This document shows, piece by piece, positions 1 to 22,189 of a stretch of 64,000 bases of DNA (positions within the stretch are counted from its first letter, which is position 1; each line of letters begins with the position of its first letter). The notes under the pieces are model-generated. The model did no database searches and was not told where the DNA came from. It saw only the letters and a program-made list of their open reading frames with translations. Both the position numbers and the translations under genes were made by a program. The stretch comes from Giardia intestinalis (lineage: Eukaryota), in assembly GCA_000002435.2 (NCBI GenBank), contig CM018789.1; one strand, 5' to 3'.

Positions 1-1
1 A

Positions 2-952
2 GGGACAGAGATCACCTGCACCAAATGCTCTAGCAATAATCTGAGCCCCCTGGGAGACGCGTGTCTAACAGACTGCCCTGCCGGAACGTATGCCGTTAGT
101 GGCGACAGCGGCAGTGTCTGCAAGCCCTGTCACAACACGTGCGCCGGCTGCCAGACCGACGACAGGGAGACTTCCTGCACGGCCTGCTACCCTGGATACT
201 CCCTTCTGTATGAGTCCAACGGAGCAACTGGGAGGTGCGTCAAGGAGTGCACTGGTGCGTTCATTACCAACTGTGCGGACGGGCAGTGCACGGCTAACGT
301 CGGGGGTGCGAAGTACTGCACCCAGTGCAAGGACGGGTACGCCCCGATCGACGGGATCTGTACAGCGGTGGCAGCTGCCGGGAGAGACGTGAGCGTGTGC
401 ACGGCCACAGGTGGCAAGTGCACGGCATGTACAGGCAACTATGCGTTATTATCAGGTGGATGTTATAACACACAAACACTTCCTGGAAAGTCAGTATGTA
501 AAGCCGTGGCTAATAGCAATGACGGGAAATGCAAAACATGTGCCAATGGTCAAGCACCAGATCCTGCTACTAATTTCTGCCCATTGTGTGATTCAACTTG
601 TGCAGAATGTTCAACTAAAAATGATGCTGATGCTTGTACAAAATGTTTTCCAGGATACTATAAAACAGGAAATAAGTGTATCAAATGTACAGAAAGTAGT
701 AATAACGGAAAAAAGATCGATGGAATACCTGATTGTTTAAGTTGTGAAGCACCGATTAATACTGGTCCTGTCATCTGCTACGTTAAAACGGATGGCACTA
801 GCGATGATAACAGCGGCAATGGTGGAGACAGCACCAACAAGAGCGGCCTTTCCACTGGCGCCATCGCGGGGATCTCCGTCGCAGCCTTCGTCGTCGTGGC
901 CGGCCTCGTGGGCTTCCTCTGCTGGTGGTTCATATGCAGGGGGAAGGCGTAG
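2..952 (+). CDS. Variant-specific surface protein (VSP), C-terminal 317 codons; 5' end lies outside the window
   Basis: Frame 2 is open from base 2 to the TAG at 950-952. The translation is Cys-rich with CxxC pairs and a GGCY motif, a C-terminal hydrophobic TM (IAGISVAAFVVVAGLVGFLCWWFI) and the invariant CRGKA tail. It is identical at the protein level to the C-terminal part of the minus-strand VSP at 3601-5391. The ORF track begins at 368 only because that is the first GTG in frame. Confidence 0.9.
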   Translation, partial: GTEITCTKCSSNNLSPLGDACLTDCPAGTYAVSGDSGSVCKPCHNTCAGCQTDDRETSCTACYPGYSLLYESNGATGRCVKECTGAFITNCADGQCTANVGGAKYCTQCKDGYAPIDGICTAVAAAGRDVSVCTATGGKCTACTGNYALLSGGCYNTQTLPGKSVCKAVANSNDGKCKTCANGQAPDPATNFCPLCDSTCAECSTKNDADACTKCFPGYYKTGNKCIKCTESSNNGKKIDGIPDCLSCEAPINTGPVICYVKTDGTSDDNSGNGGDSTNKSGLSTGAIAGISVAAFVVVAGLVGFLCWWFICRGKA

Positions 953-967
953 ACTTAGGTAGTAAAC
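953..967 (+). promoter_or_regulatory. Extended VSP-type polyadenylation signal ACTTAGGTAGTAAAC (contains AGTAAAC = AGTRAAY) immediately 3' of the stop
   Basis: The sequence gcgTAG ACTTAGGTAGTAAAC is read directly. It matches the conserved Giardia VSP 3' motif ACTYAGRTAGTRAAY. Confidence 0.8.
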
Positions 968-3099
968 GCGTCACTGTATATGGCTTATTACGCTGTGCTG
1001 CTGGGGCTATCTGAGAGCGGTCCAGAGATCATGCGAGTGGGCCCGCTCCTTCCTGGCCAGTCTAAGGACGAGGGTTGAGTATGGATAACATAATGAAAGA
1101 GTCCTCTTCAGTGACACATCCAGAATCTGGGCATTCCTCGCCGCTCCATGAGGATATGCTCTGTCTGGATGTCCATGCCGATCTGCCTTGGATTCAGGTC
1201 TTCTCGCAGACTCTCTGCTCTACCAGTGGCGCCTCTCCTTGGCCTGCCGTCTGGTGGGTGAAGCTCCAGTCGCCGTCTTTTTTAGATGCTCCCGTCTGAC
1301 TCGGTGATTGCTGTCGGGCCCTCCGCTGGCTGGGCCCCTCGGTGTCCGGGCAGCTGTGGCCCGGGTCAGCGCTCCCACAGTCGCGGTCGCTTGGGTCCCA
1401 GCGGGTTCGGATGATGGGTGGGGCGGTGAGGCTGGTGGGGCTCTGGTGGGGGCTGAGGTTGGTGGTGTTCGTATGTGCCTCTGGGTTCGGTGGGTCATTG
1501 GGGTGATCCCCGCTCTGTTTGCCAAGGTGGTTGTGTCTGCTCTCCAGCCCTCGTTGCACTCCCGAGACACAGGCACCGACGATCGTGTCGTGTCCCCCTG
1601 ACTGAGTGCCTCCCTTGGCCCCTGCATGCCTCAGGCAGTACTGCTGCTCTGTCTGGCTGGTGCGTGAGTGTCGAGGCAGGCCATCGCAGCCCCTCCTGCT
1701 ACTCGCTGTTGCTCTGTGCGGGTCTGCTGAGCCCCTGGCATGCCCTGTCCGGTGCCTCGACGGGGAGTTCACCTGGGACCAGCAGGGGTGTGGATGAGCC
1801 TGTGGATGGGATGGGTTCTCTCATGCCTCTAGTGTGATGACTCAAAAGACTAACACGGTGGGGCATCGGTGACTGCACTGTCCCCGTGGTCAGCTGTGCT
1901 GCTCCTGGTGGGTCCTCGTTGTGAAGCGCTGTGTGTCGTCCGTAGGCAGGGGTGAGCCCCCTTGGTCTCAGGATGCTCTACCATCAGAGAGGAGCACGCT
2001 GAGGATCACCCAACATCACCTGCTGTGCCCTCGGGAGTTCCCGGTGTGGTCTACTAACCTTGACCCCTCCTCGTGGCTCTGATGACCCCTCGGGGAGAGT
2101 CGGCATCCTATGCCAGGGGAGGCGTGCACCCTCCTGCATGAGCTGAGTCACTCACTGCACTGCCCTCAAGGAGGTCTGCTATGAGAGGCAGTGGAATGAT
2201 CGACAGCCCCTCAGAGTGGGTGGAGGGTGCTCGTGGTCGTCTCTGTGACCGGGCATCACTCTGATGGTCAGTCCTGTGCCTGGGTGGTGCTCAGAGGTCA
2301 CCTGTGCTCCATAGCCTGCTGGACAGCCGGGCCTCTTGTGGTGTCCGAAGGTCTCCTCACTCCTCTGGCTGCTGCCCCCTCAGGTCATCGTGAATGCAGT
2401 CGAGGCCAGCGAGTCTGGTGCCTGCCTGGGTGTCATGGGGGCTGGCAGCTGTCAGGGCTCTGCCACTGCTCACCTGCCTGGAGTGTGCCTCCCTTGGGCC
2501 TGCTCTGCTGTAGTGTTTGAGTCCTCTGGCTTCCTATCAGGCCCTGATTGTGAGGGTGACCCCACCTGGTCCTCTGATGCCCCTGTGGATGAGCATGGCA
2601 GCTGTCTGGCTGGGAATCTCTGGTGCCCGTGTCTGTTGCTGCCTCTCGGGTGCTCGGGTGGTTGCCTGGGGCTCTCGTATGGGGCACAGTCAGCGTGTCC
2701 CGAGCAGACTCCGGTCCTCTCTGGGTCTACACAGTCTGTTCGTGTGTGGACGGTCCTCCTGCACTCAGGTCCGTCTGGTTCATTGTCACTCAGCTTCGAG
2801 AGTAGGCCAGTGCAGTCACCAGGGCTGCTGTCAGAGGGAGTCGTCTGCCACTACCATCGCTCGAGCAGGCCCTGCAGATCAGGCTGGCTGCTGTGCACCC
2901 TCAGCATCATGGCAGGGCTGCTTAACTCCCTTGGTCACCCTCTCTGTCCCAGCGTGCACGGCTCCTGAGGGTTGCCTGGGCGGAGGGCACTCACGAGTCC
3001 ACAGAGGGATGGGTCACAGATAGACAGCCCCCAGTCACCACAGCTGCGATCACCCGACATGGCCCATCAGACCCAGGGGCACATACAACCACCCCCCGG

Positions 3100-4552
3100 T
3101 CCCCTCCAGCCTCACCGCCCCATACCCCGCCTCACCCATCATCCGAACCCGCTGGGACCCAAGCGACCGCGACTGTGGGAGCGCTGACCCGGGCCACAGC
3201 TGCCCGGACACCGAGGGGCCCAGCCAGCGGAGGGCCCGACAGCAATCACCGAGTCAGACGGGAGCATCTAAAAAAGACGGCGACTGGAGCTTCACCCACC
3301 AGACGGCAGGCCAAGGAGAGGCGCCACTGGTAGAGCAGAGAGTCTGCGAGAAGACCTGAATCCAAGGCAGATCGGCATGGACATCCAGACAGAGCATATC
3401 CTCATGGAGCGGCGAGGAATGCCCAGATTCTGGATGTGTCACTGAAGAGGACTCTTTCATTATGTTATCCATACTCAACCCTCGTCCTTAGACTGGCCAG
3501 GAAGGAGCGGGCCCACTCGCATGATCTCTGGACCGCTCTCAGATAGCCCCAGCAGCACAGCGTAATAAGCCATATACAGTGACGCGTTTACTACCTAAGT
3601 CTACGCCTTCCCCCTGCATATGAACCACCAGCAGAGGAAGCCCACGAGGCCGGCCACGACGACGAAGGCTGCGACGGAGATCCCCGCGATGGCGCCAGTG
3701 GAAAGGCCGCTCTTGTTGGTGCTGTCTCCACCATTGCCGCTGTTATCATCGCTAGTGCCATCCGTTTTAACGTAGCAGATGACAGGACCAGTATTAATCG
3801 GTGCTTCACAACTTAAACAATCAGGTATTCCATCGATCTTTTTTCCGTTATTACTACTTTCTGTACATTTGATACACTTATTTCCTGTTTTATAGTATCC
3901 TGGAAAACATTTTGTACAAGCATCAGCATCATTTTTAGTTGAACATTCTGCACAAGTTGAATCACACAATGGGCAGAAATTAGTAGCAGGATCTGGTGCT
4001 TGACCATTGGCACATGTTTTGCATTTCCCGTCATTGCTATTAGCCACGGCTTTACATACTGACTTTCCAGGAAGTGTTTGTGTGTTATAACATCCACCTG
4101 ATAATAACGCATAGTTGCCTGTACATGCCGTGCACTTGCCACCTGTGGCCGTGCACACGCTCACGTCTCTCCCGGCAGCTGCCACCGCTGTACAGATCCC
4201 GTCGATCGGGGCGTACCCGTCCTTGCACTGGGTGCAGTACTTCGCACCCCCGACGTTAGCCGTGCACTGCCCGTCCGCACAGTTGGTAATGAACGCACCA
4301 GTGCACTCCTTGACGCACCTCCCAGTTGCTCCGTTGGACTCATACAGAAGGGAGTATCCAGGGTAGCAGGCCGTGCAGGAAGTCTCCCTGTCGTCGGTCT
4401 GGCAGCCGGCGCACGTGTTGTGACAGGGCTTGCAGACACTGCCGCTGTCGCCACTAACGGCATACGTTCCGGCAGGGCAGTCTGTTAGACACGCGTCTCC
4501 CAGGGGGCTCAGATTATTGCTAGAGCATTTGGTGCAGGTGATCTCTGTCCCT
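3100..4552. repeat. Right arm of the inverted repeat (reverse complement of 1-1450)
   Basis: Same evidence as the left arm. The arm is bounded on the right only by the window start, so the repeat may extend further into the VSP coding region. Confidence 0.85.
3586..3600 (-). promoter_or_regulatory. Extended VSP polyadenylation signal (reverse complement gtttactacctaagt = ACTTAGGTAGTAAAC) 3' of the minus-strand VSP
   Basis: Mirror image of 953-967, immediately after the minus-strand stop at 3601-3603. Confidence 0.8.
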
Positions 4553-5391
4553 GCCCGTGCAGCGCTTTCCTTAGAGGTGCATTCTCCACAGTTTTCTATG
4601 CCGCCATTATTCGTTGTGCCACAACTTACGCATACCTTCTTGTTACCACCAGCGCTGTCAGTAGTGGGGAAGTGCGTCTTGCCTTCTCTGCACACGGCTT
4701 CGCTAACGCAAGACGTTTGTTCATCTGCTTCTGTTTTCAAATAATCAGCAGCACATTCAATGCACTTTGCAGGACCAGCGTTCTTTGGCTTTTCACATTT
4801 AGCACATCCAGCAACTCCTTTGTAGCTATTAGGCCCTGTGGTAGCGTCACATTTTATGCACCCACCTTCATTTCCAGTTGCTCCAACAAAGTATCCGTCT
4901 ATACATTTTGTACATTTGTTTTCACCAGCTCCTCCACATGTGGCACAGTTGGCATCTTCACATGCTATACAGGAGTCTGCAGTTGCAACAGCATCCGAAT
5001 TCTTATAATAGCCATCCTTGCAAGCACCACACACCCCTGCAGTACGTGCACCAGGATTTGACGCCTCATCCGCACAGATGAGATTGCCAGGAGCCTCTCC
5101 TATCTTATAGCATCCGCCTTTGTGCAGGAAGTAGCCATTTCCACATTGTCCACATACCTTATCACTTTCTTCTATATTAGTACCCCCGTTCTTCTTACAA
5201 CCAGCGTTAGTGACTGCTTCTTCACTATGGGCTGTACATATTCCATTGATGGGTACTTTCCCTTGATTACATTGCATACAGATTTCAGTATCGCCAATCG
5301 TATCACATTGGCCAGCTTCACAACTATTTCCACTATTCTTGCAATCTACTGCAAATGTAGATAATATAAGATAGAAGGCTATCAACAACAT
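3601..5391 (-). CDS. Variant-specific surface protein (VSP), complete, 596 aa
   Basis: ATG start. N-terminal signal peptide MLLIAFYLILSTFAVDC. About 12% Cys in CxxC spacing, GGCY motif, single C-terminal TM and CRGKA tail. AT-rich region upstream (5392-5650) is consistent with a Giardia promoter. Confidence 0.95.
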   Translation of the reverse strand: MLLIAFYLILSTFAVDCKNSGNSCEAGQCDTIGDTEICMQCNQGKVPINGICTAHSEEAVTNAGCKKNGGTNIEESDKVCGQCGNGYFLHKGGCYKIGEAPGNLICADEASNPGARTAGVCGACKDGYYKNSDAVATADSCIACEDANCATCGGAGENKCTKCIDGYFVGATGNEGGCIKCDATTGPNSYKGVAGCAKCEKPKNAGPAKCIECAADYLKTEADEQTSCVSEAVCREGKTHFPTTDSAGGNKKVCVSCGTTNNGGIENCGECTSKESAARAGTEITCTKCSSNNLSPLGDACLTDCPAGTYAVSGDSGSVCKPCHNTCAGCQTDDRETSCTACYPGYSLLYESNGATGRCVKECTGAFITNCADGQCTANVGGAKYCTQCKDGYAPIDGICTAVAAAGRDVSVCTATGGKCTACTGNYALLSGGCYNTQTLPGKSVCKAVANSNDGKCKTCANGQAPDPATNFCPLCDSTCAECSTKNDADACTKCFPGYYKTGNKCIKCTESSNNGKKIDGIPDCLSCEAPINTGPVICYVKTDGTSDDNSGNGGDSTNKSGLSTGAIAGISVAAFVVVAGLVGFLCWWFICRGKA

Positions 5392-5649
5392 TGAAGTTTC
5401 CCTCAGCTTATTATAGGGTAAGAGTCCTGTTAGTAAAGGTACTTAAAGCTAAAAAGATTCATCTGGTTATTACTATGCTACTAACTTAGAGATCTTCCTT
5501 TTTTATAATATCGTTGTACAAGCGATAGTTGTTAATGCTGAAAGCATCTACTACATATAGTTTGCCGCCCACCACGGATTCTTGCACAACACGCAGGGAA
5601 ACAGAAAATTCAAAAATAAGTAGCGATGCTGTCTTGCGTGTCTGCTACT

Positions 5650-8600
5650 CCCCTACCCTGTAGCTAATCAAAGGGCGGCCCGGGCGTCCTCCCTGCGTTA
5701 TGGGCCCACTGCTGGTTCCTCTCCTAATGTCTCTGCGTCCCTGATGAGCCAGCTCCCTGTGCCTCCCCTGCGCGGATCGAGCCCCTGTGGACCCCCGTGC
5801 GCCGATGATCTCTTCTCCGCCTCTGTAGTATTCTCATCCTTTTGGATTATGTCTGCGATTCCTAGCTGTCGTGGGGGAGCCGCACTCAAGGATAGACCCC
5901 TACAAGATCCCAAGAGAAGATCGCAGCAGTCGCTAAGGTCCATAGATGTGTGAATCAGTGTAGATTGGCCTATGAGACGCTCTGGTTTGTTGGGTGTGCA
6001 TGGCGCTATTTCTGGCTTTTTGTAGTGGATACTTTAAGGTTCCACATCACATGATAAGGTGTCAGATGGTCAGAGGGCGTAGGCCAGCAATCCTAAATTT
6101 AGACAAGGAGGAAACCCTGCCCAAGCTGTGCCACCCCCTGAGCTGATGGATCAGGACTCTTATCCTCCCCTCTGGATCATCCTGGTGCTATCACTACCAC
6201 CACTAATGGAAGCACCTAGGAGTGCAGTACCTTGAACCTGTTAGTGTAGGGCTCTAGGTCCTCAGAGCTTCCTACATGTGGATGTCTGTAGTAGAAGGAA
6301 CAGGGATCCAGGGAGACTGTATTAGTCCAGCATCCTTTATAGCCTCCTGTGAGTACTAGAGCAGTTGATCCCCCCATCTGCTGATAAGGGAATCGAATAG
6401 CATTCGCTCATGACCCTTGGTCCGAGCTATAGTTGGTCCCGAGGAGACACGCCGATCAGCCCAAGCGTCCTACCTCTTGACTCACGAATCATGCCACATT
6501 GCAGGACTTGTACTGGTGTTGCTTAGCACGCGTTACATAATGCATAGAAGGCCGGCATCCTCCTATCATATAGCTATAGGAATCAGACAAACCCTATTGA
6601 GGGCATCATATCCTGCGATCTTCTATAGCTCCGCTAGAGGCCAGAGCACCGCTGTACACAGACTGGTATGGAAAGTGCGATCCAGCACCATACACCTTGA
6701 GCTGGGAGTCCCATAAGCATGCGTTTCTGATACAACTCGCCAAGAATCTTGTAGGAAGCTGGCCTAAGTCAGTTACTGGAAGGTTTCCAATGAGCAGACG
6801 ACTGCTGTGGTCTACCAGTCGCTCCTCCTTGTCTTAAAAGATATCTGGTAATGTCTAGTGTTGTGGGCTGGGTGGTCCCTGTCCATCTATAAGATTTGAC
6901 TGGTGTACGTTGTAGACAACTGACGAGATTGATATCATCTTCCATCAGATGGGTCTGGGTGAGCAGGCAAACTATGTAGTTGACCGGTTATTCTAAAAAA
7001 TCCTGCACTTATGAGGCCACAACTACAACTTGCATTCGATAGGTAAGGAGTTCTATTGGACTGGGATGCTCTCTGCAAGTTCCTCGGGACGTGTGGCTAC
7101 CTTAGCGCAGTCTCCAAGAGGGTAGCCTTGTCTGACGGAGACGTGCAGGCACGAGCACAATATAGCGCCCTTCTCAGTCTACAGGGTCAAGCACACCCCA
7201 GACGACGGAGATAGATGGAGACCCAGAAGTGATCAATGCTAATCTGAGCTGTTCTGATCCCTCTTGGCTAAAAGATTAGTAGGATCGCAAAATGACAGGG
7301 ACCCACTTCACACCCCCGCTCAAGGAGGTCATGCCTTAGTGGAAGTACGTGTCATGGTTACTGCTGACTACTCGTTAACAAGGTACTGCTGTGCTTGAAG
7401 ACCTCCTGGAATAGCCTGTCTCGGTTTGCTGGTCATGAGCTGGGTCCTCGCGCTAGCTGATTGGATGAGAAACAGTAGTAGTATTACCCAGACGATGAGC
7501 TGAGAAGGCTGATGCTGACTATGTATCTCTCACGCTGAGCATACCCACTGTGCAGCGCAAGGGATTTGACGTCCTAGGTGGTCAGTCGAAGCTGCTAAGT
7601 GTTTGGTAGTAACGATATGCACGCGGGCTCCAGACAGCGGATTGTGAGTGAAGATGTTGGGGAGCACAAGACCTGCTGGATTACATAAGACGTACAAAGG
7701 ACCCCCACGCAGTGAACTGATTGACCCTTTTTCTTGGTAGACAAGGCTCTGGCCTGTAGTGGCCGCCTGCATAACACATTCTTTTGTGGGACCGATGGAA
7801 GCACCTGTTGATCTGGAAAGACCATCAATAAATGGTTGCACGAGATAGACGGGCAGAGGACAAGAGCTGATCAGATCACCTTGGCTGATGAGCAATCCAA
7901 ACTACGCAGTATGTGTAGCAACCTGTATCGAAGGTGGAGATACATCGTAGGACGTCATGTGGCCAAGAAGCGTCATTGGTGTCCGTCTGCCGTGGGAGGA
8001 CGTAGGTGAGACACATGTGGACAGCAACCATGCCGACTGATACCAACCTGCGCAGTATACCTCTACAATCGATCCTCACCCGTATACGAAGGGAAGGTGA
8101 ATGCCCTCGGTTCCAAACGAAGCAACTCTTAATAATATTACGTTGCTGTAAGTGCATAAAATCAAAAAGCAGCATCTAGCTTGTCTGCAGACCCTACGAC
8201 CTCTCCAGGCATAGAGGTCAAAGAGGCAATACAGGTGTCCCTGCTGTAATTCAGGCTAATTGCTGGCCTCTCTAGCATCAGTTTTATCTCACTGGTCTGC
8301 TGGTGGCCTCTACCTTCTCTGTGTGAGCCGGCTCTCTGAGAATCGCTGTGCACGGATAGCTTCCTGTGCACCTAAGTAACACCCTTCTTCGTTGAGGTGT
8401 GTCACCAAGGGCTAAATATTATAAAGCGAATGCTACCAAAGACAAGCCTCCTCGTAGGTCCGTCTGCCACTAGCAGGGAGCATCCAAACGTGTGCACAGG
8501 TTCTTGACAAATGGACTGTGATCCAGGCCAGTCAGTACACTAGGCTTATGGCACTTGGTGCACGAGTTTCCGTTTTTAGCTTTAGATGCAGGCCCATGTC

Positions 8601-11600
8601 TCATCTTGAAAGACGGTGGATTGCTCTGCAGGACCTTTTTAAGTATACAGTTATCATTATAGCCAGTGGAGAAGCAGCCATAAAGACTCTATACTTAAAC
8701 AAAAGCACCTCTGGTGCAACCAAGCGCTGTCTCCTATCGATAGCAAACACCTCAGACAGACGGTGGCTACTCTACCATTGGACATCGTGCAACGTGGATA
8801 ACCATGGAAGCCGCTGTAATCTCTATTCAGTCTGCCGAGCAGACGCAGCCTCTGATCGCAGCAAGCACGATGGCTGACAGGGTGCCAATGTAAGCCAGCT
8901 GAACCGCCTGTCTCAGCGCAGCTGCATGCATTTGGAAGTTGGAGTGCACCTTTATGAAGACAACGCACCGTCTGTATATACCGTTGTCTCCTTCTGTGCT
9001 GCTTAAGATCTTAATGCCTCAGAAGTCAGGGCCAGCCAGAGTGTCCCCAGCCTGCTCACCTGGGAGACCAAGGTCGATACCGCGCATAATACATCATCTT
9101 AGGGAGACAGCGGCTGCCATCGTCGTTCCGGATTTTTTGGTATCAGACAATCAGCCCCGTGATTAGTCCACTTTTCATAGCCTCTATCTGCATATCGATC
9201 CTGGCTTCTGGCTGCTTAGGCAGCGGATGAGGAGGCAGTACAGAGCATCAGTCACTGGTCTGCCTTTTATCCGCACATGGCCCTGAATGGCGGGTCAGAC
9301 AGTGCACAGCTTCCTCTTCTGCCCTGGATGTGATGCAACCTAGCTGAGGCATATGCCTTTCCAAGGAGTGATCGGATAGCACCTGGAGCTGCTCATGATG
9401 GGCATGCTCACCATCGCCCAGCTCTGTCCTCTCTCCAGCCATCAAGAGATACCTCCTGAGTACATACCTGCGGAGCACTGCATAGAGATAACAAGACGGC
9501 GCCACCACCCCTCGAGTCTCCTCGGCTTGTCCGGCAGCGTGCCTCTTAGAGTCCAGTGTGGGCCCGCCGGATGCATTTATGCGACTGTGGATACCTTACA
9601 GCGTCGCACTCATCTAATTCACTCTGTACCCTATTCTATCTGGGAGCAGCCCAGCCGTGCACAGGAGTCCCAGCCCCCACTCAGGATCTGGTCCAACGCT
9701 CACCTGGCTCGATGCCCTGCTGCACCTTGTTGGATGCCGCGCTGAAGCTATCGATCTGGCGATGCTCTGGGCGCACCACCCCACATCCACGCTGCTATAA
9801 AGCAGAGATCCTCAGGCTGCCCGTGGCCCGTTATAAGAGCTGTGATGCATAACCGCACACAGAGTGCCTGACTTAATATGCACCTGTCCACCGATGTGCC
9901 CTGACACTTGCTGGTGGAGATGCGTTGCTACAACCACGCAAGTGTTTACACCCCCTAGAGACTCTCACGCCATGCAACATAGAACTCTCCTGCCTGGCAC
10001 GGGCTCCATGATACTAAGGCCCTAGAAGAGCGCCCTGGGCGCCTTCAGTCCTATTTGGAGAGGAGACGTGGTGCGGGAGGGCTAGCTGCTTTCCAGCGTG
10101 ACTTAGAATAGTTGGAAGACCGCATGAAGACCTCTCACCACATGACCAGCGTGGTGTTCTGCCATCTGCCACTGATATAAGAGCCAACCCGCTGAGTCCA
10201 CATCGAGGCAGAGCACCACCCAACAGTGTAGGCGAGACTTATAACCGTGCTCATACATGTACACGCTGCTCGACCGGTTGGTGCCCATGTCCCTACGCCC
10301 TGCTCCTTCGCTGTACAATTGCTCCAATCGAGGCTACCAAAGCGTGGGTCCAGTAGCCACTATGCCCGTTGTACCGACAACGACAGCATGCCGCTTGCTG
10401 TAGGCGCCATCTACATCCAGGCATGCTCTTCACCGTTGTGCTGCTTCTGGTGCACTATGCGGCTTGTATGATGATTCATGTCCCCGGTGACCACTGGGAG
10501 TGTTGTCCCCGTGCCATCTTGATATCGAGTCCGATAATTGCCTGACAGAGCTCCCGGCTTGTGTGACCCTATATGGTAGTCTTGATTAGCACACAAATGT
10601 GTAATAGTTATGCTGCAAGACCCAGTAACAGCCGCTGGCCACTCGCATTGAGGTGAGAGACCAGACAGAAGTAGGAGTAGAATGCCCAAGAGGAACCATA
10701 TCATTAGATCTGCATCTGCAGAGAAGTTCACCTGTCACTACCACAGGGACAGGGCTCCATGTAAAGTATCAGTGAGCAATACCATAGGCAGTACCCCGAC
10801 TGTGCAGCTGCGGTGGCCGATGATCTGGAATGCTGACACATCTGCTACCGTCATGGATGGACTGGCAGGCCAGATAAGGATGCTCTAGGCTGCGATGGAA
10901 TCGCATGAGATTGTGTATGACTGGGGGTCACTTCCTTGTTATGCCTGCTATCGAAAGCCAGCTCATGAGATGGACAATCTTGGAGTGGTCAGTCCCCGTG
11001 TTCTCCCAGACATCAAGACTGTGAGGGCCTCCATGAGCTTTCATGTCCTCGTCCAGTCATGCTGGCTGTTCTCAGAAGCAGTCATAACTGTCGGGCCTGT
11101 TCGGATGCCACACCCCTGCAGGCCTCGGTGCTTTGAGCACAGCTTCCAGGCTGCATGCGTGCATTGGTGGACACCAGGTACGTCACTCGCTCCCTATTTT
11201 CTAAGCCTGTTATGACAGGGGTAGCCCTCACTAGCCTGACCCAGCCAAGCCTCCTGGCGTCCTACGCCGGGAGTTGCGGGGCCCAGACAGTTGTCTTATC
11301 TACACTATGGTTGCCATAATGACGGGTATATGATCACAGCCCTGATGGGATCATCTTCGCTGTCCTGGCGGACCTCCAACTCTTCAATGGGATAGATACG
11401 GGGCACCATCTCTCGACACTTTCAGCGAGGGTGACAGGCGCAGTGCTCTCGATACCAACAAGTAATGATGTTGGAGCGCAATGGACTGTCACAGAGTTAT
11501 AAAATTTCCTTCTTCCTTCCTACGTTAAAGCTGATCAATGTTCGAACTCTCTCGGATTAAATCCAGAAGTTGGCAGGACACCGCGTCCCGGTGAGGCTCG

Positions 11601-11720
11601 GAAGCTCAAGATCAGCATGTGATCACTAGCCGTTGAGAATAATGCACAGCACTCAGCAGCTCTCTCTCAGGGTCTGCTGGAGGCTGAATGAGCACAGGCA
11701 GGCAAAGCTCTTATGACGAG
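5650..11720. other. 6.1-kb region with no credible coding potential (gene desert / degenerate sequence)
   Basis: In about 6 kb the longest six-frame ORF is 121 aa, and stops occur at random-sequence frequency in all frames. There is no codon periodicity, no Cys-codon enrichment and no tandem repeats. Base composition is near even, with scattered short AT-rich patches. Confidence 0.5.
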
Positions 11721-11777
11721 CCATCGATTTAAAAGGATATTAAAAAATTACGAATAACCCCTTTAAATTCAAAACCA
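11720..11777 (+). promoter_or_regulatory. AT-rich initiator/promoter region upstream of the 11778 ATG
   Basis: The sequence gatttaaaaggatattaaaaaattacgaataacccctttaaattcaaaaccaATG is a typical Giardia short AT-rich core promoter directly abutting a start codon. Confidence 0.55.
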
Positions 11778-13364
11778 ATGGGCCAGTCGCCGTCCAAGCT
11801 TGCACCCCCGCCTTTCCTCGCGTTGCCAGTGCCTGGTGTAAGGTTCACAGGCCCCAATGGTACGACGTGCACGTGGGCAGACCTGTACGCCCACTGTTCT
11901 ATCAGGGCCCAGAAAGCCGTCCTTGACGCGTTCAACATGAAGTACAGGGAGAAGGTCGTCCACTGGCACGGGACGTTGCTGAATGCAGATCCTAGCACTA
12001 ATTCCGTCCTTTTCAAGATGAGCCCCTCTATCAACCAGGGGGCCGTTCCCGACCTGGCTCTTCACTTTCCTCAGTCGTTTACGGTGACGCAGCTTCAGCC
12101 TCTGATAAAAATGAATGAAATGAAGACGATCGACTTCGTGGGGAAGCTGAGAGGGATGAACGGGCCCGTAATTGCCGCTGACTACGTTTCTGTGGGCGGA
12201 GGCTACGTTGAAAAACCCGAGCACAATCTTCCAAAGACCGTTGCTGATGCGCTGCATGCGATTCCGGAGGCCTTCCCCTCTCTGGCTGCTCTGGAGTCTC
12301 AATTGACGGTGGAGTATCCTATGGTTGCGATGGAGTGCTCCATGCAAGCACGCGGGCTTCCTGAAGCTATCTTCATGAGGCACATCACTAAGGTTGCCGG
12401 CGCCTTATCCTGTCAGGTTATAGAGGTGTCTCCTCAGAACGCCAAGGTCAAGTGCAACCCCCGCATAGATGAGAAGGCGCCGTTCGATGTTCTAGTTACT
12501 TTCCAGCCAGCCATGGCTGCGAAGCTCCCAGAGGTCAAGCAAGGGGCGCTCTGCACTTTCCGGGGCAAGTACACCTCGATATCAACAGCACGCGAGCCGC
12601 AGAAGGTCTTTGGATTTGCCGCCGACGACGTTGTTCTCAATAAGGATCCTGCGGCAAGCTTAGCATCCCTGCCCACTAAGGGGGGCGATGTGTTCTACCA
12701 GGGTCAGGACGAAGTTGTGATGAAGAATCTCCGTGCTCAGGTTGAGTCTGATAGGCAGCTTCATAAGTCCATGAGGGGTGGTGCCCACGCACAGACACCA
12801 GCCTCTGCTCCCACTCCAGCGCCGCCGGCTCCATCAGAGCCCGCATCCTCATCTGCAGGGCACAAGCCAGCTGATGATAAACCCGTGGAGGAGCCACCAG
12901 CTGAAGCCTCAAAGCCAGCCGAGCCAACGCCGAAGGTCGAGGAGGTCAAGCCGCCAGTCATCGAGGAGACAGTGTCAGACGTTGCTGGGAAGGATCCTCT
13001 GGAGGTTGCTCTTACCCTCATGCAGTCTGCGCCAGAAGCGTCCTACACTGTCAAGAAGAGCATCCTCGATGCAGATGAACAGGAGGACGACCCAGTGGCC
13101 CGCATGGCCAGGCTGAAGATGGGCGGCTTCAACGCCAGCGCGTTTACTTCCTCCGCCGACAAGTACATGGGCGAGCTGGACATGCTAGCCGGCGTAAAGC
13201 CAACGCAGCAGAGTGACTATGACGTGTATGACGTGGCTAATGACTACAATAATACAAACAACTATGATAGCTACAACAGTGGCTACGATAACTATAACAG
13301 CGGCTATGACAACTATAGCAGCGGTGGCTACAACAGCTATGGCGGCGGCTATAGCAGCTGGTAG
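11778..13364 (+). CDS. Hypothetical protein, 528 aa; predicted N-myristoylation motif (MGQSPSK), acidic Pro/Glu/Lys-rich linker and C-terminal Tyr/Asn/Gly/Ser-rich low-complexity tail
   Basis: Long ATG-initiated ORF with an AT-rich promoter upstream. No recognisable catalytic domain. The MGxxxS N-terminus matches the N-myristoyltransferase consensus. The C-terminus contains degenerate YDNYNSG repeats. Confidence 0.6.
   Translation: MGQSPSKLAPPPFLALPVPGVRFTGPNGTTCTWADLYAHCSIRAQKAVLDAFNMKYREKVVHWHGTLLNADPSTNSVLFKMSPSINQGAVPDLALHFPQSFTVTQLQPLIKMNEMKTIDFVGKLRGMNGPVIAADYVSVGGGYVEKPEHNLPKTVADALHAIPEAFPSLAALESQLTVEYPMVAMECSMQARGLPEAIFMRHITKVAGALSCQVIEVSPQNAKVKCNPRIDEKAPFDVLVTFQPAMAAKLPEVKQGALCTFRGKYTSISTAREPQKVFGFAADDVVLNKDPAASLASLPTKGGDVFYQGQDEVVMKNLRAQVESDRQLHKSMRGGAHAQTPASAPTPAPPAPSEPASSSAGHKPADDKPVEEPPAEASKPAEPTPKVEEVKPPVIEETVSDVAGKDPLEVALTLMQSAPEASYTVKKSILDADEQEDDPVARMARLKMGGFNASAFTSSADKYMGELDMLAGVKPTQQSDYDVYDVANDYNNTNNYDSYNSGYDNYNSGYDNYSSGGYNSYGGGYSSW
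13214..13361 (+). repeat. Degenerate in-frame tandem repeats (about 21-nt units, GGCTAYGAYAACTATAACAGC) encoding the YDNYNSG low-complexity tail
   Basis: The DNA-level repetition ggctacgataactataacagc / ggctatgacaactatagcagc / ggtggctacaacagctat is visible. Confidence 0.6.
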
Positions 13365-13393
13365 GTTCTGAAGTAAAACTTTAAATTTGACCG

Positions 13394-13726
13394 ATGCCTC
13401 CGATTAATAGGCTAGATAGGAACCCGTGGCAGGATCCGAAGTCCATCCGCGACAGGGTTGACGCCGAAGGCATACAGAGGTGGCACGAAAATAATCTGAA
13501 GGAGATCCGCAAGGTGCAGCACCGCGCAGACTTTGACTCTAAGGACAAGCTTGGAAGTGAGGTTCTTGCTGCGCGCAAGGAGCTAGACCAAATAAGACAA
13601 GCAGTTAAGCAAGCAAACGTAGTGTGCAGACGCGAGAAACTCCTGAAGCTGTACAGTCTCGATTTTGAACGCCAACGCCAGGAGCTACAGCGCCTTGGCT
13701 ACGACATAAAGGTGGTGGCTCCGTAA
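13394..13726 (+). CDS. Hypothetical small charged coiled-coil protein, 110 aa
   Basis: ATG preceded by an AT-rich element (gtaaaactttaaatttgaccgATG). It fills the gap between two confident genes. No identifiable domain. Confidence 0.45.
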   Translation: MPPINRLDRNPWQDPKSIRDRVDAEGIQRWHENNLKEIRKVQHRADFDSKDKLGSEVLAARKELDQIRQAVKQANVVCRREKLLKLYSLDFERQRQELQRLGYDIKVVAP

Positions 13727-13727
13727 G

Positions 13728-14999
13728 TCATGCTCTTTGTGGTGGTTTTTCTCTGCCGTGTCCTGGCTGAGCCATGTGGTCAATGAGCAGATTCTCTACC
13801 CTGTGCAGTCGCATCTCCAAAGGACTCAAGAACGCAAAAGTTGCATTCCTCTGACTGTCCACAACGAGCTCATCGTATGACTTTTGGCGAAACACTTCGT
13901 ACTCCTTGTAAACATTGGTGCCAACGAGAAGGCTCTTGCAGTTATTGATTTGGAATAGCAGATCCTCCTCAAGGTCCTGCACTGAATCTGCAAGCTGGGC
14001 CACTGCTGCCCGCATCTCCTCGCAGGAATGCAAGGTTGCCTCCTCGCAATCTCCCATCTCATCACGCAAAGAGCGGGCTTCGGTTTCTAGAAAGAGCTTC
14101 ATGCTGTCGTACTTCACGCAGAGCTGCTTATAGCTATTTCCTAGGCTCTTGTCTTCGCTGTCCTGCTGGATCATGATAGTCTCGAGTGTCTTCATGCCGA
14201 GCTCCAATGCCTCCAAGACGGGATATTTGTCCTCCGCAGCAACCACTCTCTCAGTTAGTGCTTCTATCTGACTAGCAAGAGCGGGAATGCGTGCCCTTTC
14301 GGCGTCCATTTTCTGAGATACCTCTAGAAAGTCTGCCTCACACTTTCGTATGATGCTTGTCTGAGAGGTGAGATCCAGCTTGAACGCCTCTGTCAGTTCA
14401 GAGAACGCTGCGGTGGACTGAACGTACTCTTTGTAAAGCGTGTCGAATTGGGTGGCGAATCCGTCAGAACGAGTGAACAAGTCGGCGAGAAGGTCTGCAT
14501 AGCGCTTTTCTAGGGATGCGATCCTATCGGCTGCTGCACCTGAAATGTCTCCGACACAAGCACTGTCAATCTGCCGTTGAATCTCAGCAAACTTGGGCCC
14601 AATGCTTTCAAGGATGGAGTTGTTCATGAGCTCTATCTGCTGCTCGACTCCTGCCTTAATCTGTTTCATTTGCTCCTCTATCTGACGCTGTCGCTCCTGC
14701 AGAGAAGCCAGCTTAAACTCCATGTCTGTTTCTAAGGTCTTCACTCGGCGATCAATCTGCTCCTTGAACGAGGCTAGATCCTCCCTTCCCGAGCTCAGAA
14801 AGCGGTCTGTGTTCTGCACTATCTGCTGAGCGTCTCGAATCGTTTGATAATTTGTCTTAAGGTAGTTCTGTTCGGATGTAAACCAGGAAGACAGCTCGGT
14901 GAAGTTCTGCATGGTAACCCGCGCAAACTCCGTGATTACCGGCGGAAACATCGCCCACTGGTCATCCACAAAATGCTGGAGGGCAAGCTTCGTGAGCAT
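13728..14999 (-). CDS. Coiled-coil protein, 423 aa (cytoskeletal/flagellar-type; function unknown)
   Basis: Long ORF that begins MLTKLALQHF. Heptad-rich Glu/Leu/Lys/Gln composition throughout. Lies 1 bp from the neighbouring gene's stop. My line-based count puts the ATG at 14998-15000; the track coordinates are used here. Confidence 0.6.
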   Translation of the reverse strand: MLTKLALQHFVDDQWAMFPPVITEFARVTMQNFTELSSWFTSEQNYLKTNYQTIRDAQQIVQNTDRFLSSGREDLASFKEQIDRRVKTLETDMEFKLASLQERQRQIEEQMKQIKAGVEQQIELMNNSILESIGPKFAEIQRQIDSACVGDISGAAADRIASLEKRYADLLADLFTRSDGFATQFDTLYKEYVQSTAAFSELTEAFKLDLTSQTSIIRKCEADFLEVSQKMDAERARIPALASQIEALTERVVAAEDKYPVLEALELGMKTLETIMIQQDSEDKSLGNSYKQLCVKYDSMKLFLETEARSLRDEMGDCEEATLHSCEEMRAAVAQLADSVQDLEEDLLFQINNCKSLLVGTNVYKEYEVFRQKSYDELVVDSQRNATFAFLSPLEMRLHRVENLLIDHMAQPGHGREKPPQRA

Positions 15000-15031
15000 C
15001 TTTGAAAGGCTCGGTAGTAAGCTTTGAAAAT

Positions 15032-15652
15032 TTACTTGTCGCCTATTTTATCACCAAGGAAGCCGGCCTTCACAACCATTGGATAGGAGACAATAGGATT
15101 ATCTCCTTCGAACTGCACGAGTGTCTTGACCCAGCCCGTGCATGCCTCAAGCACGTCTATCTCTACACGAGGATCAAACCTGCTTAGGACCTCAAAAATC
15201 TGCATAAGAAGGGTAGCCCGAATCTCACCGTTATGTGTAGGACTTGTGACAGCCATCACAGACTCTACTACCTTGCCCATTGAGCTGTATGCTAGGCTCA
15301 GTAAAAGAATAGTATACGTCAGCGCATCGGGTTCTAGATGTGCCATTTGAAGCATAGAGTTGATCGAATGATGAACGGGCTGAGGGATTAGGTATTTTTC
15401 AACAGCTGCTTCGAGATTGACGTTATCCGAAAGGTCTCGATACATCCCCGATACGAGTTTTAGGTCGGGGCTGAAGGACTCGTGGGAAACGCTGTTCGGT
15501 CGCAAGGCGCTCAGTTGCTTGAAGTATTTGATAGAAAACTCTATTAAATCGCTCGGCTGCTCACGCAACACCACTTTTGAGTATTCCTTAATGATCTGCG
15601 GCAGTTGGTTCGGTATGGTTATCTGTTCGGAGCAGTATATACGTTCTTGCAT
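15032..15652 (-). CDS. RIIa dimerisation/docking-domain protein (ropporin / radial-spoke-like), 206 aa
   Basis: The N-terminus IPNQLPQIIKEYSKVVLREQPSDLIEFSIKYFKQL matches the RIIa consensus (IPxGLxELLxxFxxEVLRxQPxDLxxFAxxYFxxL). An AT-rich element lies upstream of the ATG. Confidence 0.7.
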   Translation of the reverse strand: MQERIYCSEQITIPNQLPQIIKEYSKVVLREQPSDLIEFSIKYFKQLSALRPNSVSHESFSPDLKLVSGMYRDLSDNVNLEAAVEKYLIPQPVHHSINSMLQMAHLEPDALTYTILLLSLAYSSMGKVVESVMAVTSPTHNGEIRATLLMQIFEVLSRFDPRVEIDVLEACTGWVKTLVQFEGDNPIVSYPMVVKAGFLGDKIGDK

Positions 15653-15808
15653 TCAACGTTTAAATTTTTTCCCTTCGCGCACTGTGCAAGCTCTTAAAGT
15701 GCATGAACGAAGATTTTGGCGTACGGCTGTGCACTGTTTTGTTAGCTATAGCCGGTAACTAGCAGATAATACATTCAATGAACTCGAGAGATTTGGACGG
15801 ATTTAAAA
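15653..15808. promoter_or_regulatory. Divergent (bidirectional) promoter region between the RIIa gene (-) and the 844-aa gene (+)
   Basis: A 156-bp spacer between two divergent ATGs. Both ATGs abut AT-rich elements (aaaaatttaaacgttgaATG on the minus strand; ggatttaaaaATG on the plus strand). Confidence 0.5.
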
Positions 15809-18343
15809 ATGCCATTTGGGCTTGACCAACTATGTGACACACAAGCCCAACCTCGGAGTCGGGTTTTACCTCTTGGCACCGGCAGCACTAGAAGCGAGGA
15901 TCCGTCCAGCTACAGGGCGCTTAGAGTGCGCAACTCTCCGTTTTTGACTAACGTGCCTCTAGTGTCAAAGGCCACTCCACAATTTGCGCACAAATCTATA
16001 GTTCACGGGGATGTGCTTGGTAGTCACGTGGCAAGTGCTATATTGTGCCATGTCCCTTCAGCAGAGGGGAGATCCAAGCAATCAGCTCTACCGCCACATG
16101 AAAACTCTTTAATAAACCAGGTACTGCCCAGGATCAGCGACACTCTACACGAAATGGCTCGCAACGCTACTCCAGATTTCTCGCAATACTCCGTACTCAA
16201 AGGCTCGGAGGACGTCGATGATAGTCCCCTGGCGTCAGTCGATCTCGACAAGTATACCAAGAATCCCCATTCAGTGCCTCACTCCCGGGTCCTTAGGCGT
16301 GCATGTCCCCCTGGCAGTGCCATACCAGGCCCGAAAAGTCACCGGAAGAGCTCTGATAGCGCCAGTGCACACCCTAAGGCCTCAGTGCACGATCCCCCTG
16401 GTCCCGTCGACCGGCAGTTCAAGTCAGCTAACGCATTCTTAGAAACAGGGAGGGCTTCGGAGCACTTCAGTATTACCGATGAGGATCTAGACGATACCGA
16501 AATCTACCAGGATATTGCTAGTTCTTTGCCAAACTCTCGCGGAAGTAATGCTTCGCGGGCAAAACCTGTTCTAAGTGTGGAGGCGAGCCCAATACATAAA
16601 CGGCCGATGCGTAAGCTCTGCCTCAACCACTTCCCCCAGCTTGTGTTGCACAATGACTCTCGTGGGAGAGCACCTTCAGTGGAGGATGCTTCTAATACGT
16701 CTGTTTCACCTGCAGGAAGTCTTGCAGATTCTAATGGTAAGGCTTCGCCTAAGGTTGAAACCCCTGTCTGCCAACTCATTCAGCTCCCTCCTATTACTGT
16801 CTTTGAGGATACTTGTGACGAGTACCAAGGTACAGCATCCAAACAAAGCCATACATCCAGTGGCAAACTGTCTTCTTGCTCACCAGCAGGTCAACTTAAC
16901 AGCCCTCGGCTACGCCTCAGCACTGGCCAAACTATAGGCGATATAAGCATAGATAACTCCATACAGTTTCCTCTATTAGAAAATGGTCGGTTATCTGGTG
17001 ATCGTTGCTCCTCCATAGACATGGATCTACCTATTCATCTGGGGACAACTCTGCTCACAATCAACGAGTCTGACAACGCAGAATTTGCTCAGCAGGTAGC
17101 TGACACCGCCACAACGAATCCCGCGTTAACGGCTGCATACAGTTCATCTTGCTCTGTCCCGCATATCTCTTCTATTACAGGCGCTCTAAATGATAGCATA
17201 ACTGAGCCGCCTCTTATGAATAGTGCAGAGCATACTCACACAAGGCTGGCAGAGCAGCGGCAGTATTCTATTGAACGTTTTCCCGTGATAGACTCCACCC
17301 AGCTGTCTGGAGCATCTTTTGCGCATAACTCTATTGCAAACGATGATCCAGACACAGGGACATTTACTTCTTCGAAGCAGTCCGTTATTCATTTGTTGAA
17401 AGGAAGCACCCGACAACTAAGTGACTATAGAGCCCTCATAGACCCAGATCAATCCACCTCACTTCTCACAGATAATATTGACGAGTGCATGGACTCATAC
17501 GTATTTATTGGGAAGCTCGGGGATGAAGATGGATCCGCAGACACTAAGTCGTGCACCTTAACTCCCCGGTATCTAAATATTACGTCGTATTGTGTTGGAG
17601 AAGACACGTCTTCTACAGCCATAGTTGACACAAACACGGCTCTTTCTCATCCTCGGCCAAGCAGTGAAGAAATCCTTAGCGGGCTATCCTCTGATGATTG
17701 GCAACGGCAGATAGATGCCATTACAAAATGTATTAGTTTTTTCTCTGCTCTGTCTACTACAACGGATAACATAGAAATCCAGACAATCATTGCATCGTAC
17801 GTTACGGTATTGTCTTCCCCACGGTCTAAGGTAATCAAGCACGCTATCGAAACTTTGGTTCCGATCTTTCTTACCAAGCACCCTGCCTTGCTGCACTACG
17901 CAGATAGGATATTCACCCCCTTGCTTCTTCGTGTTGGGTCCGCGTCCCAGGCCGACTTCATCTCCACAGCTGGAGACCGGGCGCTACACGTCATCGTATC
18001 GCTCACGCAGCCCCTCAAACTCGTGCCACATCTGCAGAAGGAGTCTAGACACAAGTCTCCAGGCGTGCGGCTTCGAGTCGCACAACTATTTACAATCATC
18101 TTCAAGGAATTTGCAGAGGATTCTCAGGTAGTTTCCCATTTCCGCAGCTCCACAGAGATATATGTTGAAACGCTATTAAGGTTGATAGGAGATAGCTCTG
18201 AATCGGCTAGGAAATATGCTCGAGAGGCCTTTGCAATGCTCTTGAGTATAACAAGGATACCAGGAGAGTCTGTTGCCGACTTTTTAACCCGTTGTAGGCT
18301 CTGCACAGTTGATAATCTTTCCAGGGTGAAGTTTGTCGAGTGA
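15809..18343 (+). CDS. Hypothetical Ser-rich protein, 844 aa, with a C-terminal alpha-helical HEAT/ARM-like region
   Basis: Long ATG ORF. The N-terminal 600 aa are low-complexity Ser/Pro/Thr-rich. The last about 230 aa are regularly helical (LLRVGSASQADFISTAGDRALHVIVSL...). No confident family assignment. Confidence 0.6.
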   Translation: MPFGLDQLCDTQAQPRSRVLPLGTGSTRSEDPSSYRALRVRNSPFLTNVPLVSKATPQFAHKSIVHGDVLGSHVASAILCHVPSAEGRSKQSALPPHENSLINQVLPRISDTLHEMARNATPDFSQYSVLKGSEDVDDSPLASVDLDKYTKNPHSVPHSRVLRRACPPGSAIPGPKSHRKSSDSASAHPKASVHDPPGPVDRQFKSANAFLETGRASEHFSITDEDLDDTEIYQDIASSLPNSRGSNASRAKPVLSVEASPIHKRPMRKLCLNHFPQLVLHNDSRGRAPSVEDASNTSVSPAGSLADSNGKASPKVETPVCQLIQLPPITVFEDTCDEYQGTASKQSHTSSGKLSSCSPAGQLNSPRLRLSTGQTIGDISIDNSIQFPLLENGRLSGDRCSSIDMDLPIHLGTTLLTINESDNAEFAQQVADTATTNPALTAAYSSSCSVPHISSITGALNDSITEPPLMNSAEHTHTRLAEQRQYSIERFPVIDSTQLSGASFAHNSIANDDPDTGTFTSSKQSVIHLLKGSTRQLSDYRALIDPDQSTSLLTDNIDECMDSYVFIGKLGDEDGSADTKSCTLTPRYLNITSYCVGEDTSSTAIVDTNTALSHPRPSSEEILSGLSSDDWQRQIDAITKCISFFSALSTTTDNIEIQTIIASYVTVLSSPRSKVIKHAIETLVPIFLTKHPALLHYADRIFTPLLLRVGSASQADFISTAGDRALHVIVSLTQPLKLVPHLQKESRHKSPGVRLRVAQLFTIIFKEFAEDSQVVSHFRSSTEIYVETLLRLIGDSSESARKYAREAFAMLLSITRIPGESVADFLTRCRLCTVDNLSRVKFVE

Positions 18344-18369
18344 CTTCTCTTTGAAAATAGATTCTAGTT

Positions 18370-18376
18370 AGTAAAT
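18370..18376 (+). promoter_or_regulatory. AGTAAAT polyadenylation signal 27 nt after the 15809-18343 stop
   Basis: Read in tgacttctctttgaaaatagattctagttAGTAAATtatc. Matches the Giardia AGTRAAY consensus. Confidence 0.5.
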
Positions 18377-18378
18377 TA

Positions 18379-22171: not shown

Positions 22172-22189
22172 CACGCGGACGCCACTCTC

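Follow-up and report, generated by a model that had tools for sequence, protein, structure and literature searches.

The gene-free block of about 6 kb beside a VSP gene in the window analysed here (64,000 nucleotides of Giardia intestinalis WB chromosome 1; all positions below are those of the window unless a contig is named) is very probably native non-coding chromosome 1 DNA, which serves as the 5′ flank of VSP1267 and forms the outer right arm of an inverted duplication that is itself old. The block is real but largely ordinary for a VSP-flank locus, since gene-poor flanks, and indeed this 7-kb upstream region, are already known. Genes tend to be sparse around VSPs (Xu et al. 2020, Sci Data, PMC7000408), and VSP intergenic regions have a median length of 1280 nt and a mean of 2131 nt, as against 79 and 392 nt genome-wide (bioRxiv 10.1101/2022.03.07.483299). 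What had looked like a suspicious desert is hereby cleared as genuine reference sequence of a documented class. The modest addition made here is that the VSP1267 locus appears to be an old palindrome, with a boundary common to assemblages A and E and with arms that evolve under neutral drift and patchy conversion. The features of the locus are collected in Table 1.

Table 1. Features of the VSP1267 locus and its right-hand neighbourhood in the window
Feature	Position	Strand	Remarks
d112208, second identical VSP copy	1..952	+	3′ part, cut by window edge; Pfam VSP
Spacer of the tail-to-tail VSP copies	953..3600	.	2648 nt; GC 0.61, CpG o/e 0.48
VSP gene GL50803_112208 (VSP1267)	3601..5391	-	596 aa; Pfam VSP, 257 bits
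ORF-free block	5392..11458	.	right arm (probable), outer non-coding part; also 5′ flank of VSP 112208
Unique upstream non-coding DNA of GL50803_8528	11459..11777	+	outside the repeat; GC 0.45, AA/TT not depleted
GL50803_8528	11778..13364	+	hypothetical protein KAE8301461.1; first gene right of the block

The VSP gene at the left edge of the block encodes exactly the protein deposited as KAE8301459.1/KAE8301460.1, both on the 1,485,438-bp WB chromosome. Positions 1–1426 are 100% complementary to 3127–4552; this perfect inverted repeat holds the VSP pair and takes in the outer 474 nt of the spacer on each side, leaving 1427–3126 as the centre. The pair, on chromosome 1 in the orientation ‘-> <-’ with a separation of 2648 bp and 596 aa per protein, matches d112208/112208 in Table 2 of PMC7000408. 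It shares with the duplicated inverted VSP pairs described there the locus itself, identical inverted genes that both carry the Pfam VSP domain, and a gene-free flank. KAE8301460 (VSP) and KAE8301461 (8528) are adjacent GenBank accession numbers, which means that the block has no annotated protein gene.

A preliminary description of this DNA had called the block an ORF desert with the stop-codon spacing of random sequence, and both statements are borne out. None of the six frames of 5443–11732 (6290 nt) stays free of stops for 150 codons or more, the second-largest gap of this kind in the 64-kb window being 583 nt; the longest stop-free stretch is 139 codons, compared with 151 ± 27 in mononucleotide shuffles. 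Codon-usage log-odds, trained on the genes of the window, stayed flat and below zero whichever of the six frames was read (−0.15 to −0.19 per codon), with maxima no higher than in shuffles, in agreement with the lack of codon periodicity noted earlier. The several short same-strand ORFs seen at 7530–8371 do exist and show no coding signal. Tandem repeats are absent from the block, as had been said, and neither repeats within it nor repeats shared with the remaining 64-kb window were found. The further statement that inverted repeats are missing holds inside the window but fails beyond it, where the partner of what is very likely an inverted-duplication arm lies past the left edge. The right limit, set at 11720, also moves: the repeated block stops at 11458, and the DNA beyond it is the unique upstream region of the next gene.

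The proposal that the block is random-like fails at the level of dinucleotides. CpG is strongly depleted (observed/expected 0.55; z = −12 versus shuffles), as are AA (0.76) and TT (0.70), whereas TG (1.37) and CT/AG (1.25) are raised, and the trinucleotide structure exceeds that of dinucleotide shuffles (z = 3.6). With a GC of 0.52 the block comes close to the 53.9% reported for the 2 kb upstream of VSPs (bioRxiv 10.1101/2022.03.07.483299), and resembles other gene-poor VSP flanks in being both long and raised in GC. It is long even for this class: the flank totals 6386 nt, roughly threefold the mean for VSP intergenic regions. One of the candidate explanations offered earlier, filler beside a VSP cluster, was essentially right: the VSP1267 pair has the block as its gene-poor 5′ flank, of a class described in PMC7000408 and in bioRxiv 10.1101/2022.03.07.483299.

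Mirrored homologues of the block were found in two other isolates. Positions 6500–11458 align mirror-wise to 1–4997 of the A2 contig L010 (74.9% over 5051 nt), and 5679–10872 align to 1007–6285 of contig L013 of P15 (assemblage E; 65% over 5445 nt). In the A2-type contig and in P15, from which the mirror copy is known (the WB window begins inside the left arm), the homologue sits across the VSP pair and adjoins the Ank-zf/RPS5 genes (RPS5 is KAE8301456.1); in P15, about 8.1 kb without a called gene extends from the VSP to Ank-zf/RPS5. In this mirrored form the flank sequence is recurrent. The preliminary description had overlooked that the block belongs to a palindrome.

Arm homology stops at 11458. 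An A2 contig (L007) spans 11057–15015, and right-side A2 contigs extend 141 nt (k=141), 30 nt (k=31) and 404 nt into the arm of L010 with 99.75–100% identity. The end of the P15 right contig is 100% identical to the P15 left contig over 454 nt, placing the boundary there at window position 11461. The outer boundary is thus identical in assemblages A and E (∼11458–11461), which implies that the palindrome is older than the A–E split. On the left of the WB locus, WB-like contigs (L011) end 523 nt outside the A2 boundary and have no k-mers in common with the block, and the left side may be arranged differently in WB.

Between the copies, transitions dominate (ts/tv 3.96), substitutions outnumber indels (1185 substitutions versus 48 indel events) and the mismatches show no period-3 component. 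Non-coding DNA of Giardia in general has a ts/tv of 7–12 and 20–36 substitutions per indel, and the transition-dominated, indel-poor divergence without codon periodicity is Giardia's neutral pattern. Identity along the arms is a mosaic of 60–96%, in which the closest pair of copies switches from segment to segment; at the level of sequence, such switching marks arms that have undergone patchy gene conversion or exchange with each other. A1–A2 identity is 98.7% outside the boundary and 91% inside, changing exactly at 11458, and the unique DNA at 11459–11777 is 77.7% identical to P15. Moreover, the arm ends match each other far better within the P15 and A2 genomes (the 454 nt and the 30–404 nt given above) than the arms of assemblages A and E do (0.65–0.70). 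Arms that are closer within a genome than between lineages, together with a sharp boundary, are what a palindrome maintained by conversion displays. The WB block nevertheless differs from the A2 arm by about 25%, when genome-wide A1–A2 divergence is about 2%. Accounting for this difference, which goes beyond what the literature contains, takes an additional assumption: the arm haplotype may be ancient and divergent, or another VSP flank may have been the source of a conversion.

These observations fit a model in which the palindrome is centred on the tail-to-tail identical VSP1267 genes. The block itself probably has no sequence-specific function, judging from its lack of conservation, and may have persisted simply through slow deletion of DNA in Giardia. 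Through their homology the arms could contribute to the recombination by which the two VSP copies stay identical, and the block, being free of genes, could buffer housekeeping genes against a VSP locus of variable expression. Where the sequence ultimately came from, be it a transposon, an old VSP array or something else, would by now be past recognition. More generally, a very low indel rate and a strong transition bias can keep kilobases of functionless DNA in a genome as compact as that of Giardia.

The ampliconic palindromes P1–P8 of the human Y chromosome are large palindromes maintained by arm-to-arm gene conversion. Common to these and the VSP1267 locus are inverted arms of several kilobases with genes in them, a short unique spacer, identical or near-identical arms attributable to intrachromosomal conversion, and a palindrome that predates a lineage split. 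The two differ in size, the Giardia palindrome measuring ∼18 kb against 10 kb to Mb, and in that 100% identity in WB is shown for the inner arms (the VSP genes) only, the outer arm being mosaic and non-coding; conversion in Giardia is moreover deduced from sequence. The palindrome has a bearing on how duplicated VSP genes are kept identical and on why short-read assemblies break here.

Among other explanations, the one that survives best, although we consider it unlikely, is that the block consists of one or more decayed transposable-element relics (GilD-like non-LTR elements, or LTR/Tc1 fragments) that drove VSP duplication and then eroded. CENSOR matches to BEL, Gypsy and Mariner/Tc1 were reported in the 7000-nt 5′-upstream region of VSP1267, and other duplicated VSP pairs have similar sequences upstream (Rodriguez-Walker et al. 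2022, bioRxiv 10.1101/2022.03.07.483299). Pseudo-RT remnants occur between several head-to-head VSP pairs (PMC7000408), and the sequence family is indeed multi-copy, with arms in A2 and P15. Yet the CENSOR-reported relics find no counterpart at the protein level here: when the block was scanned against Pfam in six frames at E≤1, no reverse transcriptase (RT), integrase, transposase, endonuclease, VSP or other domain came up, and none of its stop-free pieces of at least 60 aa had a match among 5.8 billion proteins. A majority consensus of the three copies has a random stop density (0.039–0.045 per codon) and at most 124 stop-free codons. Neither terminal repeats nor a poly(A) tract was seen in the block, its mismatches lack codon periodicity, and Table 2 of PMC7000408 annotates no pseudo-RT at the 112208 pair. 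GilD, a ‘dead’ non-LTR retrotransposon family of Giardia (Arkhipova & Morrison 2001, cited in PMC7000408), resembles the block in being non-functional, ORF-broken, multi-copy DNA within a compact genome. However, neither RT nor endonuclease has left a recognisable trace in any frame or in the consensus of the three copies, and the block is not assigned to GilD. The degraded pseudogene or GilD-like retroelement suggested earlier accordingly lacks support from the Pfam scans, the VSP searches described below, the consensus ORFs and the mismatch periodicity alike.

Less probable again is a functional regulatory or ncRNA locus for VSP switching, acting through antisense or hairpin transcripts that feed RNAi or as a heterochromatin nucleation zone. 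The retention of palindrome and boundary in assemblages A and E would agree with such a role, as would the near-identity of the outer arm ends in A2 and in P15 and the genome-wide tendency of VSP upstream regions to be unusually long and GC-rich (bioRxiv 10.1101/2022.03.07.483299). Conservation argues against it. Between assemblages the block contains no conserved islands, and no segment rises above the neutral level (R–P identity ≤0.73, compared with 0.79 for ordinary upstream DNA). High-identity patches are not the same in different lineages, which is expected from conversion rather than constraint. Rfam gave no match at the gathering threshold, nor any at E≤1 on 5392–11777, and the ncRNA locus listed among the early candidates is likewise unsupported.

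We give slightly less weight still to a decayed array of VSP/HCMP pseudogenes or other former genes. About 208 pseudo-VSPs exist in WB, often arrayed near VSPs (PMC7000408), and the excess of TG over CA on the + strand of the block (1.37 versus 1.20) could be a faint echo of a VSP coding strand. Even so, no Pfam VSP domain (PF03302) was detected in any frame, and the best tblastn match of 121 VSPs against the block had an E of 0.06 per query, at the level of noise. Codon-usage scores are flat, and the consensus is as free of ORFs as the A2 and P15 copies, so the intact genes that related isolates might have carried in the orthologous block are not there. Taken together, the block, its A2 and assemblage-E counterparts and their consensus are devoid of genes, domains and known RNAs.

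A similarly slight probability attaches to the idea that the whole ∼18-kb palindrome, including its non-coding outer arms, is a unit of antigenic variation. By one route, read-through across the inverted arms might yield long hairpin dsRNA and thereby RNAi-type silencing of VSPs; by another, the arms might be the substrate for recombination in which paralogous palindromes swap VSP cassettes. Such swapping would explain the ∼25% difference between the WB and A2 arms despite a genome divergence of ∼2%.

The possibility of an assembly artefact, or of a foreign or scrambled segment as had once been considered, is refuted for all practical purposes: protein matches are absent, stop spacing looks random and the short-read assemblies all break at the edge of the block, but the breaks are exactly explained by the repeat boundary, because contigs enter the arm by k or k−1 nt, collinear homologous DNA is present in the independent A2 and P15 assemblies, all three arms (WB block, A2 and P15) have the same dinucleotide signature, and the locus agrees with the published PacBio and optical-map reference (PMC7000408).

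In a more distant assemblage only a 1.4-kb gap occupies this position, without a VSP. The GlsR9 snoRNA, present elsewhere in the WB window, adds to the identification of the locus.

The block of DNA in the 5′ flank of the VSP1267 gene had been noted in the preliminary description as an ORF-free, random-like segment devoid of repeats, and its lack of coding capacity is real: over 6290 nt no frame of the six contains a stop-free stretch of at least 150 codons, the second-largest such gap in the 64-kb window being 583 nt. The longest stop-free stretch within 5650–11720 is 139 codons, compared with 151±27 in mononucleotide shuffles. A codon-usage log-odds score, trained on 23 genes of the window, gave +0.06 to +0.15 per codon for real genes in frame and −0.15 to −0.19 for the block in all six frames, and its window maxima in the block did not rise above those of shuffles. 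The search for tandem repeats in the block found none, and repeats were equally absent inside the block and between it and the rest of the window; Rfam identified no family in the block, whether at gathering score or with the threshold relaxed to E≤1. The term random-like had to be abandoned. CpG is depleted (observed/expected 0.55, z=−12 against shuffles), TG (1.37) and CT/AG (1.25) are in excess, AA (0.76) and TT (0.70) are scarce, and trinucleotides carry content beyond that of dinucleotide-preserving shuffles (z=3.6).

We searched for relatives of the block at the protein level. All 35 stop-free pieces of at least 60 aa, joined, returned zero matches against 5.8 billion proteins, which denotes no homology and says little about whether the DNA is native, because gene callers skip such DNA. 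Pfam scans of X-masked six-frame translations yielded nothing at E≤1, reverse transcriptase, integrase, transposase and VSP domains all being absent, and tblastn with 121 VSPs against the block gave noise only. The transposon relics reported with CENSOR in a preprint (bioRxiv 10.1101/2022.03.07.483299) are without protein-level support in the block and may reflect a distant origin of the sequence. JGI metagenome scans with a 26-mer from the block were negative but uninformative, since a 23-mer control taken from the adjacent gene was negative too. Exact look-ups of the VSP product and of a 106-aa ORF of the block gave no record in an index that evidently lacks the NCBI WB chromosomes.

The adjoining VSP genes place the block precisely. 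They lie within a perfect inverted repeat, and their orientation, length of 596 aa and separation of 2648 bp match exactly the chromosome 1 pair d112208/112208 ('-> <-') in Table 2 of Xu et al. 2020 (PMC7000408), which identifies the locus; VSP1267 is GL50803_112208 (bioRxiv 10.1101/2022.03.07.483299). The exact protein is KAE8301459.1/KAE8301460.1, on a WB chromosome of 1,485,438 bp. Since these accessions and that of the first gene right of the block are consecutive, no protein-coding gene is annotated inside the block in the reference. A homology search with the VSP gave a best match of just 52–59% identity, suggesting a foreign or novel VSP; this idea was dropped on finding the exact protein in the collection, the low match being a clustering artefact, since a Logan fragment of 301 aa stands for the whole 90% cluster. 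Only one Logan contig, of 1.3 kb, carries any part of the VSP1267 gene; the palindromic locus is almost wholly lost from short-read assemblies. The centre of the pair contains one weak tblastn VSP match (P0083, E=0.001, window ∼2691–2951), which may be what remains of a pseudo-VSP such as the literature reports between tail-to-tail pairs.

Features of the VSP1267 locus, contigs bounding its arm and other elements, in window coordinates
Feature	Coordinates	Description
Inverted repeat	1–1426 and 3127–4552	100% identity
Centre between inverted repeats	1427–3126	1.7 kb; GC ∼0.61; strong T>A skew
VSP gene	3601–5391	
VSP1267 copies		596 aa each, identical; tail-to-tail, 2648 nt between
ORF desert	5443–11732	
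GL50803_8528		First gene right of block; KAE8301461.1
Ribosomal protein S5 (RPS5)		KAE8301456.1
Contig L004 (A2, MEGAHIT)		k=141; overlap with end of L010 arm exactly 141 nt, 100%
Contig L005 (A2, Logan)		k=31; overlap with end of L010 arm exactly 30 nt, 100%
Contig L007 (A2, Logan)	11057–15015	Covers right end of block; k=31; overlap with end of L010 arm 404 nt, 99.75%
21-nt tandem repeat	13262–13348	∼3 copies, 73–83% matches; 3′ end of GL50803_8528
Second, smaller gene-sparse region	22942–25676	
Single ORF of at least 200 aa in that region	24415–25029 (−)	
C/D-box snoRNA GlsR9	25539–25617 (−)	Rfam RF02477, 114 bits; directly upstream of gene at 25677

Homologous DNA in other isolates demonstrated that the block is native to Giardia. 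On its right side, in addition to the A2-type contig L007, the P15 (assemblage E) contig L003 showed weak collinearity back to about 11021. The far side of the VSP pair was reached via contigs carrying RPS5. The ENA contig L010 (A2) contains ∼6.4 kb nearly free of called genes, after which come genes for a 121-aa protein, an Ank-zf protein and RPS5, and its positions 1–4997 align with window 6500–11458 at 74.9% identity over 5051 nt, in mirrored orientation on the chromosome. The P15 contig ACVC01000023.1 (L013) runs from a VSP through ∼8.1 kb to Ank-zf/RPS5, its positions 1007–6285 aligning with window 5679–10872 (65%, 5445 nt). In keeping with the earlier account of a gene-free block, no intact gene is called in this P15 counterpart and the A2 counterpart is almost gene-free. 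The dinucleotide signature is common to all three arms of the inverted duplication (WB block, A2 and P15; GC 0.52–0.56), and no hidden ancestral ORF emerges from their majority consensus, in which stop density is random and stop-free runs reach at most 124 codons. In assemblage E the 3′ end (tail) of the VSP faces the desert (L013 1–833 beside 1007–6285), as against the 5′ end in WB; judged from this arrangement, the VSP cassette appears to have been inverted or replaced in P15 and the arm kept. In a more distant assemblage (L008, 82% amino-acid identity) a gap of only 1.4 kb, with no VSP, separates the 122-aa, Ank-zf and RPS5 genes from the orthologue of GL50803_8528, so the palindrome and its deserts are an insertion relative to that lineage. 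Assemblage B contigs break at the same place, and the end of their left flank (L014 1–1378) has no alignable similarity to the arms.

The outer edge of the arm could be located from contig ends. Short-read assemblies entering from the right all stop at window ∼10916–11435, and the overlaps of three A2 contigs with the end of the L010 arm are characteristic of de Bruijn assembly stopping at the edge of a repeat, here window 11458. Over its last 454 nt the P15 right contig matches the left contig at 100% identity, placing the boundary at 11461. This coincidence between assemblages A and E indicates that the inverted duplication, including its outer edge, is older than the A/E split. If the WB arms are equal in length, the mirror copy being known from the A2 contig and P15, the arm spans 3127–11458 (∼8.3 kb) and the palindrome ∼18.4 kb; Xu et al. 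(PMC7000408) report resolving duplications as long as 20 kb. WB-like left contigs (L011; 18 of 23 read) all terminate 523 nt short of the A2 arm, on its outer side. The L011 end point has no similarity to the window, and L011 1–921 aligned with L010 5520–6445. Since L011 ends outside the boundary and shares nothing with the block, the WB left side may differ, and its contig ends hint that this flank in WB contains another repeat or is arranged differently.

Alignment of the WB block with the A2 arm shows 1185 substitutions (ts/tv 3.96) and 48 indel events, mostly of 1 nt, with no 3-base periodicity among mismatches. Baseline ts/tv in Giardia is about 12 for A1–A2 and about 7 for A–E (window 11319–23364 against L004 and L003), and non-coding DNA accumulates 20–36 substitutions per indel, a baseline that fits neutral evolution of the arms. 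Identity changes in a mosaic fashion along the arm (78–90% at 6500–7700, 60–72% at 8000–10000 and 81–96% at 10200–11420). In mid-arm the A2 and P15 arms resemble each other most (0.74–0.81) and the WB block stands apart (0.60–0.72); at either end of the arm the highest identity is between the two assemblage-A copies (0.78–0.93). Across assemblages no arm segment is better conserved than ordinary upstream DNA (0.79). From these alignments, the mosaic is best read as patchy gene conversion, not constraint. Identity between A1 and A2 falls at 11458, from 98.7% across the 319 nt of unique sequence beyond it to 91% just inside and 60–70% in mid-arm. The 25% difference between the WB and A2 arms, in genomes ∼2% apart, implies either that WB retained an old divergent arm type or that conversion occurred from another VSP flank. 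Giardia overall has an extreme transition bias, and indels are very rare even in its non-coding DNA.

One-directional, RIP-like C→T hypermutation was rejected because changes on the block's branch, polarized with P15, are bidirectional (C>T 160 and G>A 122 against T>C 123 and A>G 98) and are not concentrated at CpG. Contamination by vertebrate or host DNA, raised by the CpG depletion, was rejected since other Giardia non-coding DNA has the same signature and homologues exist within Giardia contigs.

Arms of palindromes on the human Y chromosome are maintained by conversion, and by analogy the block resembles the arms of such palindromes. Regions flanking VSPs are often gene-poor with higher allelic variation (Xu et al., PMC7000408), and the block belongs to this class but is ∼3 times the mean VSP intergenic length (median 1280 nt, mean 2131 nt; genome-wide values 79 and 392 nt, respectively; Rodriguez-Walker et al., bioRxiv 10.1101/2022.03.07.483299). 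The same study gives a GC content of 53.9% for the 2 kb upstream of VSPs and describes a '7000-nt 5′-upstream region of VSP1267' similar to upstream DNA of other duplicated VSP pairs; the block corresponds to this VSP1267 region. The block is thus real and native, its class and locus both already published, and most likely has no role beyond palindrome homology and spacing.

Outside the arm, the table lists a snoRNA, a second gene-sparse region and a tandem repeat, the last being an in-frame 7-aa coding repeat of GL50803_8528.
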